In this document: positions 2,301 to 23,302 of the stretch, piece by piece | Numbering within the stretch: the first letter of the stretch is position 1 | Layout of the letters: every line of letters starts with the position of its first letter | Source: Clostridia bacterium | Lineage (GTDB): Bacteria; Bacillota; Clostridia; UMGS1883 | DNA: 64,000 bases | Direction: 5' to 3' | Assembly: GCA_017411435.1 (NCBI GenBank) | Contig: JAFQQD010000027.1 | Span: 2,926 to 66,925 of the forward strand | Translations under genes and position numbers: made by a program | The notes under the pieces: model-generated | Seen by the model: the letters and a program-made list of their open reading frames with translations, nothing else | Database searches by the model: none | Told to the model about the DNA's origin: nothing

Positions 2301-3013
2301 TGAAAAAAATCGATATTTATAAAGAACTTCAGGAAAACGCGTATCCCGGACGCGGAATTGTTATCGGCAAATCTGCTGACGGAAAGAGTGCTGTTACTGC
2401 ATACTTCATTATGGGCAGAAGTGTCAACAGCCGCAACCGCGTATTTGTAGAAGATGGCTGTGGTATTCGCACTCAGGCGTTTGACCCTTCAAAGCTTGAA
2501 GATCCGCATCTTATCATTTACGCTCCTGTACGCGTTCTTGGTAACAAAACTATCGTAACAAACGGAGATCAGACCGATACAATATATGAACTTATGAATC
2601 AGCAGCTTACTTTTGAGCAGGCTCTCCGTACTCGTGAGTTTGAAGATGATGCGCCTAACTACACCCCCCGTATTTCTGGTATTATGAAGGTTGAGGGTGG
2701 ACATTTTAGCTATGCAATGTCAATCTTAAAGAGTGCTAACGGAAACCCCGAATCCTGCCAGAGATTTACATTCAGTTATAAGAATTCTATTGATGGAGAG
2801 GGACATTTCATTCATACATATATGAGCGATGGCAATCCGCTTCCATCTTTTGAGGGCGAGCCTAAGCTTGTAGAAATACCTAATGATATTGATAAATTTA
2901 CAAATAACCTTTGGGCATCTCTCAACGAAGACAACAAGGTATCTCTTTTTGTAAGATTTATTGACATCAAGACAGGCGAAGTTGAATCCAGAATCGTTAA
3001 TAAAAACAAATAA
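2300..3013 (+). CDS. Stand-alone IMP cyclohydrolase (PurO-like Ntn fold)
   Basis: YPGRGI, YFIMGRS.NSRNR, NGDQTD and YTPRISG motifs of PurO-like cyclohydrolases; operon position. Confidence 0.85.
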   Translation: MKKIDIYKELQENAYPGRGIVIGKSADGKSAVTAYFIMGRSVNSRNRVFVEDGCGIRTQAFDPSKLEDPHLIIYAPVRVLGNKTIVTNGDQTDTIYELMNQQLTFEQALRTREFEDDAPNYTPRISGIMKVEGGHFSYAMSILKSANGNPESCQRFTFSYKNSIDGEGHFIHTYMSDGNPLPSFEGEPKLVEIPNDIDKFTNNLWASLNEDNKVSLFVRFIDIKTGEVESRIVNKNK

Positions 3014-3040
3014 TCTCACCATACGAAAGGACAAATACAA

Positions 3041-4225
3041 ATGAAAGAGTTTGAACTTAAATACGGATGTAATCCAAACCAGAAACCTTCAAAGATTTTT
3101 ATGCACGATGGGGCAGAACTTCCCATTGAAATACTTAACGGCCGCCCCGGATACATCAATTTTCTTGATGCCCTCAACAGCTGGCAGCTCGTAAAAGAGC
3201 TTAAAGAAGCTTTGGGTATGTGCGCTGCAACATCATTCAAGCATGTTAGTCCCACATCTGCTGCAGTAGGAGTCAAGATGAGTGACGACCTTAAGAAAGC
3301 ATGTTTTGTGGATGATGTAGAAGGTCTTGACGAATCCCCTCTCGCTACCGCGTACGCACGAGCAAGAGGAACAGACAGAATGAGCTCTTTCGGTGACTGG
3401 ATTGCCCTTTCAGATAAGTGTGATGTTACTTGCGCAAAACTTATCGCACGCGAAGTATCAGACGGTGTCATCGCACCGGATTATGACCCCGAAGCACTTG
3501 AAATATTGAAAGGAAAGAGAAAGGGTACATACAATGTAATCAAAATAGACCCTGATTTCGTTCCCGACCCCGTTGAGCATAAGCAGGTTTACGGAATAAC
3601 ATTTGAGCAGGGCAGAAACAATTTTGAAATTAACCGTGCACTTCTTGAAGATATCGTTACCGATAATAAAGAAATGCCTGAGGATGCAAAGCGCGACCTT
3701 ATAATTGCGCTTATTACACTTAAATACACTCAGTCTAACTCTGTTTGCTTTGCAAAGGATGGTCAGGCAATCGGTGTTGGTGCGGGACAGCAGTCAAGAA
3801 TACACTGCACTCGTCTTGCAGGAAACAAGGCTGATATCTGGCATCTTCGCCAGCACGAGAAAGTTCTGAATCTTCCTTTCAAGGCAGAGATTAAGCGTCC
3901 TGACCGCGACAATGCAATCGATGTTTATATTTCAGAGGATTATGAAGATGTTCTCGGCGATGGAATCTGGGAAACACTCTTTACAAAAAAGCCCGAACCT
4001 TTCACACGAAAGGAGCAGAGAGAGTATCTTGCTTCTCTTAAAGGTGTAGCACTTGGATCGGATGCATTTTTCCCATTCGGAGACAATATTGAACGCGCTG
4101 CAAGAAGCGGTGTAAGTTACATTGCTCAACCTGGTGGCTCAATCCGTGATGATAATGTTATCGAAGCTTGTAACAAACACGGTATGGTTATGGCAATGAC
4201 TAAAATGCGTCTTTTCCATCATTAA
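3041..4225 (+). CDS. purH: AICAR transformylase (PurH lacking the N-terminal IMPCH domain)
   Basis: LKYGCNPNQ, SFKHVSP, KYTQSNSV, GAGQQSR, SDAFFPF and QPGGSIRD motifs. Confidence 0.93.
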   Translation: MKEFELKYGCNPNQKPSKIFMHDGAELPIEILNGRPGYINFLDALNSWQLVKELKEALGMCAATSFKHVSPTSAAVGVKMSDDLKKACFVDDVEGLDESPLATAYARARGTDRMSSFGDWIALSDKCDVTCAKLIAREVSDGVIAPDYDPEALEILKGKRKGTYNVIKIDPDFVPDPVEHKQVYGITFEQGRNNFEINRALLEDIVTDNKEMPEDAKRDLIIALITLKYTQSNSVCFAKDGQAIGVGAGQQSRIHCTRLAGNKADIWHLRQHEKVLNLPFKAEIKRPDRDNAIDVYISEDYEDVLGDGIWETLFTKKPEPFTRKEQREYLASLKGVALGSDAFFPFGDNIERAARSGVSYIAQPGGSIRDDNVIEACNKHGMVMAMTKMRLFHH

Positions 4226-4254: not shown

Positions 4255-5514
4255 ATGAAAGTTATGGTTGTAGGCGGCGGTGGCCGTGAGCATGCTATTA
4301 TAAAGAAAATAAAAGAAAATAAATCAGTTAGTGAAATTTTTGCACTTCCCGGAAACGGTGGTATCGCAGCAGATGCAACCTGCGTAAATATAGGAGCAAA
4401 AGATATTGAGGCAATCGTAAAGTTCGCAGTAGAGAATTCAATAGATTTTGCTATTGTTGCGCCTGATGACCCGCTTGTACTTGGTTGTGTGGATGCGCTC
4501 AATGCCAAAGGTATAAAAACATTTGGCCCCAATAAGGCAGCAGCAATTATTGAAGGCAGCAAGGTCTTCTCGAAAAACCTCATGAAGAAATATGGCATCC
4601 CTACTGCTCGGTATGAAGTATTTACAGATATGGATGCAGCGCTTAATTATCTTGAAACTGCACCCATTCCCACGGTTGTTAAAGCGGACGGTCTAGCACT
4701 TGGTAAGGGCGTTATAATCGCGCAGACAAGGGAAGAGGCGGTAGATGCGGTCCGTAGCATTATGGGCGATAGAGTATTCGGCGAAAGCGGCAGCAGCATT
4801 GTAATTGAGGAATTCCTTACAGGACCCGAAGTCTCTGTTCTCTCATTTACTGACGGTGAAACACTTGTTCCTATGGTGTCCTCTATGGACCACAAGAGAG
4901 CGCTTGATAATGACCAGGGGCTTAATACAGGCGGTATGGGCACAATTGCTCCCAATCCTTATTACACAGAAGATATTGCCAGAGAATGTATGGAAAAAAT
5001 ATTTATTCCCACAATTGATGCAATGAATAAAGAGGGTAGAAGCTTTTCAGGTTGTCTTTACTTTGGGCTTATGCTTACACCAAACGGTCCTAAGGTAATT
5101 GAGTATAACTGCCGTTTCGGTGACCCTGAAACACAGGTTGTGCTTCCTCTTCTTGAAAGCGATCTTCTTGAAATAATGCTTCATATTTCGGATAAGACTT
5201 TGAAAGATGCCGATGTTCGTTTCTCGGACGGCAGTGCTTGTTGTGTGGTAATGGCGTCTGACGGTTACCCCGGAAAATATGAAACGGGATTTGAGATAAC
5301 GATGCCTACAGATAAAAATATATATGTTGCCGGCGCAAAACACGAAGGTGGAAAACTTCTTACGGGCGGCGGCAGAGTGCTCGGCGTGACCGAAACTGCA
5401 GACACTCTCGAAAATGCTATAAAGAAGGCGTATGAAACTGTAAAGCAAGTTTCCTTTGCAAACGCTTATTGCAGAAGTGACATCGGCGCAAAGGCGCTTG
5501 AAGCCAACAAATAA
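4255..5514 (+). CDS. purD: Phosphoribosylamine-glycine ligase
   Basis: GGGGREHA, EGSKVFSK, KADGLALGKGV, NTGGMG, EYNCRFGDPE and GGRVL motifs. Confidence 0.97.
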   Translation: MKVMVVGGGGREHAIIKKIKENKSVSEIFALPGNGGIAADATCVNIGAKDIEAIVKFAVENSIDFAIVAPDDPLVLGCVDALNAKGIKTFGPNKAAAIIEGSKVFSKNLMKKYGIPTARYEVFTDMDAALNYLETAPIPTVVKADGLALGKGVIIAQTREEAVDAVRSIMGDRVFGESGSSIVIEEFLTGPEVSVLSFTDGETLVPMVSSMDHKRALDNDQGLNTGGMGTIAPNPYYTEDIARECMEKIFIPTIDAMNKEGRSFSGCLYFGLMLTPNGPKVIEYNCRFGDPETQVVLPLLESDLLEIMLHISDKTLKDADVRFSDGSACCVVMASDGYPGKYETGFEITMPTDKNIYVAGAKHEGGKLLTGGGRVLGVTETADTLENAIKKAYETVKQVSFANAYCRSDIGAKALEANK

Positions 5515-18600: not shown

Positions 18601-18656
18601 AAGGAGGAGTAGCAGTCAATAGTGGTGTTCCTTTTGCAACTGCTACAAAAGAAAAT
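18601..18656 (+). repeat. SD-hairpin leader, variant 0
   Basis: AAGGAGGA-GTAGCAGT..22 nt..ACTGCTAC-AAAAGAAAAT-ATG. Confidence 0.6.
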
Positions 18657-19094
18657 ATGGAAGTAAAAAAAATCAAAGAATTAGCAAAAGAAAACTTTGA
18701 AAAAGGTTTTTGGGAAAGACATTTTAATTATGCCAGAACCAGTGAAGAAAACCAAAAATGTATGTTGGAAATCATTGAGAAAACTAAAAAAGTTTATGAT
18801 TTGGTTGAAAGTGAAAGTGTTTCATTTGAAGAAAAGTTGAATATGCTTTTTGAAATTGCAGAGAAAGTTTTTGAATATGATTTTGGAATCTGTTTGACAG
18901 AGTGGAAAAAGTATAGTGGCAATATAAATGAGTGTTTACATATAATTGAAATTGATAAAAATGCTCCATATCTAACCCAGTCAAAAAATAGTTTAACTGA
19001 TATTAAAAGCAAAACCTTGTATGGTGCAATAGTTTCCATAAATGTAGGTCTGCTAAAAGAAATATATTTTAATATGAAAGGAGAGTGGGAGTAA
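18657..19094 (+). CDS. Hypothetical protein (cassette 1)
   Basis: 145-aa ORF; its last codons and stop (KGEWE*) are encoded by the next leader repeat. Confidence 0.75.
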   Translation: MEVKKIKELAKENFEKGFWERHFNYARTSEENQKCMLEIIEKTKKVYDLVESESVSFEEKLNMLFEIAEKVFEYDFGICLTEWKKYSGNINECLHIIEIDKNAPYLTQSKNSLTDIKSKTLYGAIVSINVGLLKEIYFNMKGEWE

Positions 19095-19108
19095 ATCTCC
19101 CACAACAA
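19078..19108 (+). repeat. SD-hairpin leader 1
   Basis: AAGGAGA-GTGGGAG-taaat-CTCCCAC-AACAA. Confidence 0.85.
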
Positions 19109-19113
19109 GAAAA

Positions 19114-19374
19114 ATGACTGTTAGAACATTGAAAAAACATTATAAAAAGAACTTCCCAGAAGGACACTTTTTTGATAAAGAAACATTAGAATATTGGGGA
19201 GAGAGTATAAATGCTATGTCAATATCAAAAAACTTGGTTGATTTTAAAGGTCATAAGTGCTATGAATTAGTTGCTCTTCAAAAAAATGATTATCATAACT
19301 TGAATAGATATGTATGGTTTTATTTTGATTGTGAAACTTTTGCATATATTGATTGTAAGTTTAAAAAAGATTAA
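19114..19374 (+). CDS. Hypothetical protein (cassette 2)
   Basis: 86-aa ORF with GHFFDKETLEYWG; aromatic-rich. Confidence 0.75.
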   Translation: MTVRTLKKHYKKNFPEGHFFDKETLEYWGESINAMSISKNLVDFKGHKCYELVALQKNDYHNLNRYVWFYFDCETFAYIDCKFKKD

Positions 19375-19380
19375 AAGTGA

Positions 19381-19412
19381 AAGGAGAGTGGGGACACTGC
19401 TCCCCACAACAA
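19381..19412 (+). repeat. SD-hairpin leader 2
   Basis: AAGGAGA-GTGGGGA-cactgc-TCCCCAC-AACAA. Confidence 0.9.
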
Positions 19413-19419
19413 TTTTATT

Positions 19420-20205
19420 ATGACAAAGTTTGAAAATTATTTTAACAATAAAGACCTTGATAAGAAAACCATTGAAAAATATCTTAAAATCATAGAAAAC
19501 TTGTGTATAGAGTTTGAAGATATAGGTCTACACCCATATAATTATGTTAATGATATGCTATGTATAGCAGAATATTTTGGTGTGGAATTGTGCTACCCAC
19601 TTATCACAGGAGAGAAAGCAGAAAAAATTGTTTTTGAAAAATTAAAATCAAAAATAGAAAATATGGAATATGATTATAATTATGATAATGATACTGAAAC
19701 ACTTATTGACTGGAAAGAACTCAGTGATTTTGTTTATGATATACATAGAAATAGTGAAGATATATATTACTACTATTACAAAACAGATAGCAATTCAGTT
19801 ATGGGTGTTTCTCAACTGGGGGAAGTAGATATAAATAATATTAGAAAAAATCTTTTAGAAAAAATAATAGAGATTGTAGATAATGAACAAGGGAGAGTGG
19901 GGACACTGCTCCCCACAACAGAAAAAATGAAGTATAAAATGAATATAACAATTACCTATAATGACATTGAAACAACCATTGATTTAGATTGTAATTTTTT
20001 TATCATTAAAGAAAATGACTATGGCAACAAATATCATTTGTCAATTACAAACAAATTGGGTTTTAATGAGTGGGTTGATATTAGATATGACACAACCTTT
20101 GATATCAACAAAAAAGAAAAGTATCTTGTGGACTGGGCATATAATTATTGGACTGGTAAAAATGGTGCTTGGGGAATCAAGAGAATTAAAGTCATAAAAC
20201 TATAA
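19420..20205 (+). CDS. Hypothetical protein; in-frame fusion of cassettes 3 and 4 (internal start at 19927)
   Basis: 261-aa ORF that reads through leader 3 as GRVGTLLPTT; in-frame ATG at 19927. Confidence 0.7.
   Translation: MTKFENYFNNKDLDKKTIEKYLKIIENLCIEFEDIGLHPYNYVNDMLCIAEYFGVELCYPLITGEKAEKIVFEKLKSKIENMEYDYNYDNDTETLIDWKELSDFVYDIHRNSEDIYYYYYKTDSNSVMGVSQLGEVDINNIRKNLLEKIIEIVDNEQGRVGTLLPTTEKMKYKMNITITYNDIETTIDLDCNFFIIKENDYGNKYHLSITNKLGFNEWVDIRYDTTFDINKKEKYLVDWAYNYWTGKNGAWGIKRIKVIKL
19889..19920 (+). repeat. SD-hairpin leader 3 (inside ORF)
   Basis: AAGGGAGA-GTGGGGA-cactgc-TCCCCAC-AACA, essentially identical to leader 2. Confidence 0.9.
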
Positions 20206-20212
20206 ATGTATT

Positions 20213-20239
20213 AACCACCAACTATGGCAGTTGGTGGTT
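20213..20239 (+). terminator. Terminator of the cassette array
   Basis: AACCACCAACT-atggc-AGTTGGTGGTT followed by T-rich sequence. Confidence 0.8.
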
Positions 20240-20489: not shown

Positions 20490-20894
20490 ATGACACCAAC
20501 ATTAAAAGAACAGAAGAAAGAGTGCTTAACCAGATTGAAACTTTCTGGGTTATGCAATGAAGTTATTACAGACTTCAAAAATGGGCAGTTATACAAGACT
20601 GAACAACTGGGTATATTGTATTATATCAATGACAATGAAAAGGCAGTGGTTAAAGACTTTGAAGAAAAAAATAATGCTATGGTATATCATATATTACATA
20701 GTAATACAGAGTTTGGAGAATTACTTGCTTTACTCTATGTCAGTAAATACAAGGAAGAGTGGCAAACTGACAGAGAAGATTTAAAAGATAATATTGCTTT
20801 GTCTTATGTCTATAATGTTGATTGCCCAGATTTCAGTGAGTTTGGTTCTATTGGTTTTGCCCAGAGATTTGGGGGACTTGTGAGAACTGCATAA
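20490..20894 (+). CDS. Hypothetical protein (LYVSKYKEEW...DREDL...SEFGSIG...GGLVR)
   Basis: 134-aa ORF; ATG at 20490 after AAGGGAG; own terminator at about 20897-20943. Confidence 0.8.
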   Translation: MTPTLKEQKKECLTRLKLSGLCNEVITDFKNGQLYKTEQLGILYYINDNEKAVVKDFEEKNNAMVYHILHSNTEFGELLALLYVSKYKEEWQTDREDLKDNIALSYVYNVDCPDFSEFGSIGFAQRFGGLVRTA

Positions 20895-21039: not shown

Positions 21040-22188
21040 ATGGCAGGGACAAAAGATTTACATAATGCAAAAAAAGAGAAAAAAGATGAGTTTTATACTC
21101 AACTTGAAGATATAGAACTTGAACTAAAACATTATAGAAATGACTTTAAAGGCAAGGTTATTTTTTGTAATTGTGATGACCCCTATGAAAGTAATTTCTT
21201 TAAATACTTTGCAATGAACTTTAATACTTTTGGACTTAAAAAGTTAATTGCTACTTGTTATGCTACTTCCCCAGTGGCAAACACACAACTTTCTTTGTTT
21301 GATATTTTAGATATGCCAGAAGAAACAGAAGAAGATAACAGAAAACCACATAAAATAGAGATTACAGAAGTTCTGGACTACAATGAAGATGGAGCAGTAG
21401 ATTTAGCAGATGTTGAGTTTCTTTTAAGAAGTAAAAAAAACACTCTTACACTTCTTAATGGAGATGGAGATTTTAGAAGTGAAGAGTGTATAGAACTTTT
21501 AAAACAAGCAGACATAGTTATAACAAACCCACCATTTTCTTTGTTTAGAGAATATGTTGCTCAACTAATTGAATATGACAAGAAGTTTATTATTATAGGA
21601 AATAAAAATGCTATCACTTATAAAGAAATATTTTCTTTAATACAAGAAGAGAAAATGTGGTTGGGTTATAGAAATATAAATGCAGATATGTGGTTTATAG
21701 TTCCAAAAGACTATGAGTGTGAAAAGGTTGTAAATGGTTTAAGAGTTAAGCATATTATGGGTTGTTGGTTCACAAATCTTGACACAACTAAAAGACACGA
21801 AGATTTATTGCTTTTCAAACCATATACCCCAGAAGAATACCCCAAATATGATAATTATGATGCCATAAATGTTGATAAAGTTAGTGATATTCCTTGTGAT
21901 TATGATGGTGTTATTGGAGTTCCTATAACATTTCTTGATAAATACAACCCTAACCAATTTGAAATACTTGGGTTGTCTCAAAAAGTTGGTATGGGGTTAG
22001 AAAGCAACAAGTTTTATGATGATTACAAGGAAGTAAGACAAGATGGCAGTTTTACTGGTAGTTCTGGCAAAAAAACAAATGGAAACCCAGTAATGAAAGG
22101 AAAACCAGAAAAAGGAAATTACTACACTAATGGAACTGATTTTGTATATTCTCTCTATGGAAGAATATTCATAAGGAAAAAAAGGTGA
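21040..22188 (+). CDS. Adenine-specific DNA methyltransferase, EcoRI family
   Basis: K.DEFYTQL, CNCDDP.ESNF, GDFRS.E, ITNPPFSLFREY and GVPITFLDKYNP.QFEI motifs. Confidence 0.92.
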   Translation: MAGTKDLHNAKKEKKDEFYTQLEDIELELKHYRNDFKGKVIFCNCDDPYESNFFKYFAMNFNTFGLKKLIATCYATSPVANTQLSLFDILDMPEETEEDNRKPHKIEITEVLDYNEDGAVDLADVEFLLRSKKNTLTLLNGDGDFRSEECIELLKQADIVITNPPFSLFREYVAQLIEYDKKFIIIGNKNAITYKEIFSLIQEEKMWLGYRNINADMWFIVPKDYECEKVVNGLRVKHIMGCWFTNLDTTKRHEDLLLFKPYTPEEYPKYDNYDAINVDKVSDIPCDYDGVIGVPITFLDKYNPNQFEILGLSQKVGMGLESNKFYDDYKEVRQDGSFTGSSGKKTNGNPVMKGKPEKGNYYTNGTDFVYSLYGRIFIRKKR

Positions 22189-22192
22189 GTTT

Positions 22193-23302
22193 ATGGAAAT
22201 AAGATTAGAAGAAAAAACAATTAGAGAAATCTATAATGGTTATCTTGATAGTGCAGAAAATGGAGTGGTTGCATTTGGTGGAAAATTAAATGTAAGACCA
22301 CCTTTCCAGAGAGAGTTTGTCTATTCTGGCAAACAGAGAGATGCAGTCATTGATACAATACAAAAAGACTTCCCATTAAATGTTATGTATTGGGTTGAAA
22401 ATGACAATGGTTATTATGAACTTCTTGATGGACAACAAAGAACCATAAGCATTTGTCAATATGTGGGTGGAGAATATTCCATAAACCACAGAGCATTTGG
22501 AAACTTGACTGAAACTGAAAAAGAGCAGATTTTGAATTATAAACTAATGATTTATATTTGTAAAGGTAATGACAAAGAGAAATTAGACTGGTTCAAAATC
22601 ATAAATATTGCAGGAGAAAAACTAACAGACCAAGAGTTGAGAAATGCCATTTATACTGGTGAGTGGTTGTCAAATGCAAAAGCATATTTTTCTAAAAATA
22701 ACTGCCCAGCATATCAAATAGCAAGTAAATATATGAGGGGAACACCCATAAGACAAGACTACCTTGAAACAGTCTTAAAATGGGTTTCTGCAAGAGATAA
22801 TATTGACTTGGAAGATTATATGGCAGAACACCAGAACACCACAAATGCAAGTGAATTATGGTTGTATTTCAACAGTGTTATTACTTGGGTAAAAACTATA
22901 TTCCCTAATTACAGAAAAGAAATGCAAGGCATTGAGTGGGGACTGCTCTATAACAAATATGGTAATGATAAACTTGACCCACAAGAACTTGAAAAAAGAA
23001 TAGTTGAGTTAATGCAAGATGATGACATAACAAAAAGAAGTGGCATATATGAATACTTATTAAGTGGAGAAGAAAAATACTTGAACATAAGAAGTTTCAC
23101 AGACACAATGAAAAGAAAAGTCTATGAGAAACAAAAAGGTATATGCCCACATTGTAAAGCAGAGAAGAAAGAGAAAATACACTGGGAGATTGAAGAAATG
23201 GAAGCAGACCACATTACACCTTGGTGTGAAGGAGGAAAAACAGAAATTGAAAATTGCCAAATGCTCTGCAAAGAACATAACAGAAGAAAATCAAGTAAAT
23301 AA
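22193..23302 (+). CDS. DUF262 (GmrS-like) plus C-terminal HNH endonuclease
   Basis: P.FQR, DGQQRT and F..IN motifs; CPHC...MEADHITPW.EGGKT...NCQMLC..HN.RK. Confidence 0.9.
   Translation: MEIRLEEKTIREIYNGYLDSAENGVVAFGGKLNVRPPFQREFVYSGKQRDAVIDTIQKDFPLNVMYWVENDNGYYELLDGQQRTISICQYVGGEYSINHRAFGNLTETEKEQILNYKLMIYICKGNDKEKLDWFKIINIAGEKLTDQELRNAIYTGEWLSNAKAYFSKNNCPAYQIASKYMRGTPIRQDYLETVLKWVSARDNIDLEDYMAEHQNTTNASELWLYFNSVITWVKTIFPNYRKEMQGIEWGLLYNKYGNDKLDPQELEKRIVELMQDDDITKRSGIYEYLLSGEEKYLNIRSFTDTMKRKVYEKQKGICPHCKAEKKEKIHWEIEEMEADHITPWCEGGKTEIENCQMLCKEHNRRKSSK

Follow-up and report, generated by a model that had tools for sequence, protein, structure and literature searches.

Within the window, the whole 64-kb stretch of DNA that was analysed, positions 19420-20205 of the forward strand form a single open reading frame (ORF) of 261 aa (protein P0001), which closes a variable operon as its last cistron. 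We consider it likely that this ORF consists of two cassette genes, fused because no stop codon separates them, across a leader with the layout of a split ribosome-binding site (RBS), and that internal initiation of the downstream gene has probably been kept. It belongs to a small integrative island in gut Clostridia, where the operon comes after xis (HTH_17) and a phage-type integrase gene and is followed, downstream of its terminator, by a conserved 134-aa gene, an EcoRI-type methylase and a GmrSD_N/HNH nuclease. The features referred to below are:

18602-18656 (+), RBS of the first cistron: AAGGAGGA, GTAGCAGT, a 22-nt loop, ACTGCTAC and a 10-nt spacer, then ATG 18657
19080-19113 (+), leader 1: stem variant GTGGGAG/CTCCCAC, with a loop TAA (19092-19094) that stops the upstream 145-aa ORF; then ATG 19114
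19383-19419 (+), leader 2: Shine-Dalgarno sequence (SD), hairpin and 12-nt spacer, then ATG 19420
19420-20205 (+), fused ORF P0001: 261 aa
19420-19887 (+), N-half module: 156 aa, acidic (pI 4.5), mainly helical
19888-19926 (+), leader 3 as linker: translated in frame as QGRVGTLLPTTEK, 13 residues
19891-19896 (+), SD of leader 3, GGGAG(A), inside the fused ORF
19897-19916 (+), hairpin of leader 3, GTGGGGA/cactgc/TCCCCAC, inside the fused ORF
19917-19926 (+), spacer of leader 3, AACAGAAAAA: 10 nt, then ATG 19927
19927-20205 (+), C-half module: 92 aa, starting at the internal ATG, member of a ~95-aa stand-alone family
20213-20239 (+), intrinsic terminator: 11-bp stem followed by a T-run, ending the operon right behind the fused ORF

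A leader repeat is read in frame within the 261-aa ORF

A reading made from the sequence alone had placed a third copy of the leader in frame inside the 261-aa ORF, with an in-frame ATG at 19927 that would give a separate 92-aa protein. Both points are borne out: positions 19892-19920 are read through as part of the 13-residue linker, and the ATG is codon 170 of the ORF, leaving 92 aa to its end. Leader 3 shares with leader 2 (19383-19411) the 29-nt repeat GGAGAGTGGGGACACTGCTCCCCACAACA, identical at 29/29 positions, and such a repeat pair occurred in 0/100 shuffled controls. SD, hairpin, 10-nt spacer and ATG are all intact in leader 3, and the C-half domain begins exactly at 19927. The GC content of the leader-3 stretch is 54%, compared with 25-28% in the coding DNA on either side.

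The identical 261-aa protein is recorded on four contigs from NCBI, Logan and ENA. Searches of the N-half, the C-half and the neighbouring small ORFs against Pfam, PHROGs and NCBIfam returned nothing above the cut-offs, and the fusion, used as a tblastn query against phage and plasmid collections, found no match.

The leaders have the layout of split ribosome-binding sites

The leader consists of GAAAGGAG(A), a 7-bp stem with a loop of 5-6 nt and 10-12 A/T-rich nt, so that in the three copies the ATG (19114, 19420 and 19927) follows 10-12 nt downstream. Leader 1 is a variant, GGAGAGTGGGAGTAAATCTCCCACAAC at 19080-19106, whose loop TAA confirms the earlier observation that the repeat itself supplies the stop of the upstream ORF (KGEWE*); the 86-aa ORF upstream of leader 2 ends 8 nt 5′ of the leader's GGAG. 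A looser form of the pattern occurs three times in the 2.0-Mb genome, each time within this operon. Scanning of genome contigs gave 60 stretches, only four of them real, namely the Clostridia MAG loci L033, L043, L048 and L063, while 10 stretches in viral contigs and 8 in metagenome contigs were all due to chance. Across the five genomes concerned (that of the window and those of its four relatives), the leader is confined to the island, and among genomes of the same order (n = 87) it was found in only one other.

Two base pairs of the stem are changed on both sides between leader 1 (GTGGGAG/CTCCCAC) and leaders 2 and 3 (GTGGGGA/TCCCCAC), and hairpin classes a and b show G-U changes on one side; with only five distinct stem variants to compare, the statistics of these compensatory changes are thin. 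Predicted stabilities range from -12.8 to -15.8 kcal/mol (z ~ -2.8). For leader 3, an alternative fold is predicted in which the SD (GGGAG) pairs with CUCCC, which makes a regulatory role of this copy conceivable.

No second SD was seen near ATG 19114, 19420 or 19927. From the end of GGAG to the ATG, the distance is 30-33 nt in the window's three class-d leaders and ~48 nt in the first cistron; with the hairpin removed, a distance of ~31 nt shrinks to 11 nt. Because hairpin removal shortens the SD-to-ATG spacing much as in T4 genes 25 and 38, we infer from the layout that the leader is a portable split RBS. Counting against this reading, the effective spacing of 11-13 nt exceeds the usual optimum. 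Neither a -35/-10 pair in the leaders nor a T-run 3′ of the hairpin on the + strand was present, and for want of such a T-run we rejected the leader hairpin as a + strand terminator. An Rfam scan of the whole 64-kb window returned tRNA only.

The layout extends beyond the repeat. All 14 variable-operon cistrons of the window, L033, L043, L048 and L063 carry an SD, a hairpin, 9-12 nt and an ATG, with an SD-hairpin gap of 1-3 nt, a stem of 7-10 bp and a spacer of 9-12 nt, yet their hairpins fall into four sequences unrelated to one another. The first-cistron hairpin of the window, for instance, is unrelated in sequence to those of leaders 1-3 and is conserved in L043 and L063, the stem in L063 being GTGGCAGT, with a one-sided change that gives a G-U pair. 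L033 carries two further hairpin classes, and the first cistrons of L033, L048 and L063 share the layout with unrelated hairpins. A genome-wide scan for the layout (both strands, 2 Mb) gave eight hits, three of them in this operon; being restricted to AGGAG, it misses leader 3 (GGGAG), with which the operon total is four. The reversed-sequence control of the same scan gave no hits. In this island family, every cassette gene would begin with a strong SD (AAGGAG), a stable hairpin of 7-10 bp that loops out ~20-40 nt, an A/T-rich spacer of 9-12 nt and the ATG.

Stand-alone relatives of the C-half and probable ones of the N-half

The earlier reading had proposed to search the two halves separately, in the expectation of stand-alone homologs, and for the C-half these prove to be the norm: proteins of ~95 aa with a start equivalent to M170. 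Exhaustive HMMER searching across 1.84 billion representatives gave 113 hits, all of which except P0002 (112) were limited to residues ~170-261. The majority are 90-110 aa long and stand alone, and in many the first residue aligns to M170. Five close stand-alone relatives (P0003-P0007) are 69-83% identical. The N-terminus of P0003, MLFPTTDIM, is leader-encoded; this protein thus starts inside the leader, and the leader plus C-half cassette therefore exists in unfused form. Alignment of the fusion with the C-half family by hhalign gave a probability of 99.9% for residues 169-260, and an AF2 model of the 92-aa part alone reached a pLDDT of 95.1 and a pTM of 0.84, its first strand starting from residue 2. 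A fold search with this model brought up no convincing match among solved structures (best Foldseek E 0.45; best VIA-align Z 5.3, at noise level). Among 399 genomes of the class, the C-half profile was found in the window's own genome only.

Further C-half relatives occur in other settings. IMG/VR contigs L087-L092 (86-158 kb and two short ones) carry them at 3001-3519 among small ORFs. In these large low-GC phage genomes, the relatives are 172 aa long with a C-terminal extension, start with MKYRMN and have an ordinary RBS without a hairpin. In the metagenomic proteins P0012, P0013, P0019, P0028 and P0057, the C-half domain forms the last portion of longer ORFs whose N-terminal parts are unrelated. 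Three of these longer ORFs (P0013, P0019 and P0028) retain an internal Met where family members usually start (MKY or MGY), so that fusion or read-through onto the C-half domain may be a recurrent event.

The N-half is more isolated. Exhaustive HMMER searching found P0002, the fused relative described below, as its sole clear homolog. By BLASTP, it matched a 156-aa gene of L043 with E 0.038 and a 165-aa gene of L048 with E 0.007, and these two genes matched each other with E 2e-5. A profile built from the three sequences, and thus containing the N-half itself, retrieved six stand-alone proteins of 153-175 aa, the one of 175 aa being the L048 gene called from a GTG within the leader, with P0001 and P0002 as the only fused forms; P0119 and P0121-P0124 (153-165 aa) are each stand-alone. 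Against this stand-alone family, an independent profile comparison by hhalign gave a weak match to the N-half (E ~1e-4, probability 53-59%, 45-residue core). In a sequence alignment, the C-terminal helix of the family falls on the last part of the N-half, immediately 5′ of the leader. Five proteins (P0119, P0123, P0125, P0127 and P0128) end in GEWE or GVWE, which implies a stop at the TAA in the leader loop; in the DNA of L043, the 156-aa gene indeed stops at a TAA within the leader loop. The AF2 model of the N-half was poor (pLDDT 52, with the leader-encoded tail below 50) and unusable for a fold search. The N-half agrees with this family, whose 153-165-aa members stand alone in islands of the same type, in size, in position and in a similarity that is weak but consistent; its membership is graded as probable, because the hhalign probability reached only 53-59% over 45 columns.

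Fused forms are thus rare, accounting for 2 of ~120 family members. Against the possibility raised beforehand that full-length proteins would predominate and neither half would be seen by itself, P0001 and P0002 were the only fused forms found.

Homology breaks lie at or near the leaders

The islands share xis-int and the downstream genes at 80-93% identity but vary in the interval 18680-20214. Relative to L043 and L063, the leader is the only shared sequence within this interval. Relative to L033, 92% identity extends over 19056-19418 and takes in leader 1, the 86-aa gene and leader 2, with the block starting 24 nt 5′ of leader 1 and ending at 19418, the 3′ edge of leader 2. Homology with the other islands resumes at 20210-20214. 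Gene content and order vary as well, a relative of the N-half being cistron 1 in L043, cistron 2 (the last) in L048 and cistron 3 in the window. "Cassettes" is a fair term for these units, and we infer that their shuffling arises by recombination at the leaders.

A diverged relative of ORF1 of the window (145 aa, 18657-19094) is encoded on the - strand of L033 (141 aa; reverse-complement positions 4507-4932; ~35% identity by eye). The L033 relative stops just 5′ of the leader, whereas ORF1 enters the leader by five codons (GEWE) before the loop TAA. Directly after the variable operon, at 20490-20894, a 134-aa protein (MTPTLKEQKKECLTRLKLSGLC...) is encoded in 5/5 islands with 80-93% DNA identity; searches of Pfam, PHROGs and NCBIfam gave no match to it. 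Positions 21040-23302 hold an EcoRI-type adenine methylase (PF13651, E 4.5e-140) and, 4 nt on, a gene for a GmrSD_N plus HNH nuclease, an unusual partner for a methylase of this type.

The earlier proposal that leaders are inserted or recombined independently of ORF ends, with two products of one ORF or new domain fusions as the outcome, finds support here. Upstream ORFs end before the leader, end at the TAA in its loop or read through it: across the eight class-d leaders, the stop lies 1-8 nt before the SD in five, in the loop in two, and one is read through. This variation in junction type fits an independence of leaders and ORF ends, and the islands lose homology to one another at the leaders or right beside them.

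Origin of the fusion and number of products

Read in three frames, the TAAAT-loop variant of the leader has one frame that stops in the loop, as in ORF1 and the L043 gene. In the CACTGC-loop variant, one frame ends at a TGA overlapping the ATG, one runs in frame into the next gene and one is out of frame. As the RBS element often supplies the stop, a swap of leader variant or frame would decide between stop, overlap and fusion. Ribosomes initiating at 19420 would have to make an N-linker-C protein, because the N-half gene lacks its own stop codon and reaches leader 3 in the single frame, out of three, that continues into the next gene; the linker would be the 13 residues of translated leader. 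Ribosomes probably also begin at ATG 19927 and yield a free 92-aa protein, given that leader 3 duplicates leader 2 perfectly, with every element in place. For the copy in the window, we lean slightly towards such internal initiation being in use.

Recoding was also considered. No X XXY YYZ heptamer was seen in frame near leader 3 by eye. At leader 1, a GAG codon precedes the TAA; again by eye, the next ~45 nt contain no second GAG, which a bypass of the T4 gene-60 type would need. Programmed frameshifting and bypassing were rejected, there being no slippery heptamer and no matched take-off and landing codons.

P0002 is the only other fused form found, 87% identical to P0001 and in the same fused frame. 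It has K at position 170 in place of M, and 7/13 linker residues differ, compared with 86-90% identity in the flanks of the linker. The internal RBS looks decayed in this lineage, where the fusion itself may for that reason be the selected product. Comparison of the two proteins suggests that the internal start site can decay after the genes have fused, while the fusion persists.

The same comparison bears on whether the 261-aa ORF encodes an established two-domain protein under selection, in which leader 3 is now linker only and ATG 19927 is unused. The persistence of the fused frame in P0002, with M170 lost and the linker diverged, would be expected under this explanation, and the C-half domain evidently tolerates fusion, as P0011-P0014, P0019, P0028, P0057 and P0104 carry N- or C-terminal extensions. 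In P0001, however, leader 3 has stayed identical to leader 2, with SD, hairpin, spacer and ATG kept, and it is GC-rich within GC-poor coding DNA; a free linker would be expected to evolve differently. The scarcity of fused forms in the family points the same way. We hold an established two-domain protein to be a minority prospect, albeit a substantial one. That the fusion is a sequencing or assembly artefact, due to the loss of a stop codon or to an indel close to the three Gs at 19891-19893, is barely credible. A single-base error could make or abolish the fusion, since the frame one base away stops at the TGA overlapping ATG 19927, but the agreement of the four contigs from several sources and the same fused frame in the diverged P0002 make such an error unlikely.

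Other explanations concern the leaders rather than the fusion. Hairpins between cistrons commonly protect RNA ends, and those described here might be RNA-processing or stability elements, or operators of a translational repressor, that are incidental to initiation regions. One hairpin common to three cistrons could be recognised by a single RNA-binding protein, and the alternative fold of leader 3 would suit a regulatory hairpin. Yet four unrelated hairpins occupy one position with a gap of 1-3 nt and a spacer of 9-12 nt, a fixed spacing that argues for a geometric rather than a sequence-specific role, and these ATGs have no alternative SD; this explanation appears unlikely to us. Far less probable is that the leaders are recombination sites of an integron-like cassette system driven by one of the island's tyrosine recombinases, with the fusion as a by-product of insertion. 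In its favour, the integrase is followed by a same-strand ORF array in which each ORF has a short, conserved, hairpin-forming repeat, no promoter is evident in the array by eye, and cassette content and order differ among islands with breakpoints at the leaders. Set against this, Int scores 47.9 bits against TIGR02249 (cut-off 265) and 35 against NF011946 (cut-off 435), has a phage-type arm-binding domain and adjoins Xis. The repeats are ~33-nt units, each a 20-nt perfect hairpin with an SD directly upstream of the ATG and, by eye, no second inverted core; moreover, cistrons with wholly different hairpins show the same layout, and 29-33 nt of identity suffice for ordinary homologous exchange. 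We rejected an integron, since Int falls short of the IntI models and the repeats do not resemble attC sites. Only as a long shot do we entertain the further idea that, besides their role in translation, the leaders are exchange sites of a dedicated, recombinase-adjacent cassette system of Firmicute integrative islands, in which the RBS hairpin would serve both translation and capture, and read-through would build two-domain proteins while the free downstream protein is kept. The reading of two fused cassette genes with a portable split RBS between them remains the one that we prefer.

Discussion

The island operon would be a natural case of a portable, structured ribosome-binding unit that sets gene boundaries: depending on leader variant and frame, the upstream gene would stop before the unit, stop in its loop or fuse onward. 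Mobile islands would thereby gain an inexpensive way of creating domain fusions and possibly also nested genes with two products.

The leaders also affect annotation. Gene callers merge two genes at 19420-20205 and elsewhere start genes at a GTG within the leader, so that a widespread stand-alone family of ~95 aa, to which no fold or function is assigned, is concealed within longer ORFs. The database entry of P0120 (175 aa, L048:1144-1671) starts at a GTG inside the leader. GTG or TTG starts inside the leader or hairpin are likewise seen in at least two database entries, P0003 and P0120, and in the longest-ORF reading of the first cistrons of L033, L048 and L063, and they lead to false N-termini such as VGTLLPTTDIM. 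Judging from the layout, the true start of these genes is likely the ATG 9-12 nt past the hairpin.

Comparison with known systems

Integron attC sites are imperfect palindromes of 57-141 bp with inverse core sites, located downstream of cassette ORFs. Like an integron, the island combines a tyrosine recombinase with an adjacent same-strand array of variable small ORFs and hairpin-forming repeats between them. Unlike in integrons, however, Int is not IntI, the repeats are RBS units 5′ of the ORFs, and there is no attI-Pc arrangement.

We know of no gene fusions in PeSL cassettes. These cassettes, found in T4-type phages, place conserved stem-loop regulatory motifs beside variable ORFan genes, with PeSL being an early promoter plus a terminator-like stem-loop (PMC2839356, PMC4122927). 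As with PeSL, the leader is the sole sequence common to otherwise differing gene sets, and exchange breakpoints lie at the motif; modular shuffling by recombination at the motif fits the island because the motif is the only sequence that the gene sets share. The leader differs in being an SD plus hairpin within a single transcript, without promoter or terminator.

The 261-aa ORF also resembles a stop-loss fusion with nested initiation, in that same-strand neighbours are joined and the downstream start and its RBS are still in frame. In an ordinary stop-loss fusion, however, the linker is not a translated structured RBS, nor does the stop often come from the RBS element itself, as it does here from the loop TAA.

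The closest parallel to the leaders themselves is found in phage T4, where split initiation regions of genes 25 and 38 were reportedly described by Nivinskas et al. in 1999 and by Malys and Nivinskas in 2009. As in those two genes, the leader SD lies ~31-33 nt from the ATG with a hairpin wholly in between, which reduces the distance to 11-13 nt, the leaders have no other SD, and the stem is kept by compensatory changes. In T4, where these regions have been studied experimentally, the hairpin shortens the SD-AUG distance from 27 to 11 nt for gene 25 and from 22 to 5 nt for gene 38 (PMC3014915). The island leaders would differ from the T4 regions in serving every cistron of one operon, with four hairpins, in a Clostridia integrative island, and in being portable before unrelated genes, with one copy within coding sequence. 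What is particular to the present case is a whole operon of putative split-RBS units in a Clostridia island, one unit of which is translated as a linker. If the split-RBS function holds true, a mechanism of two T4 genes would extend to mobile elements of Firmicutes and to a whole operon.
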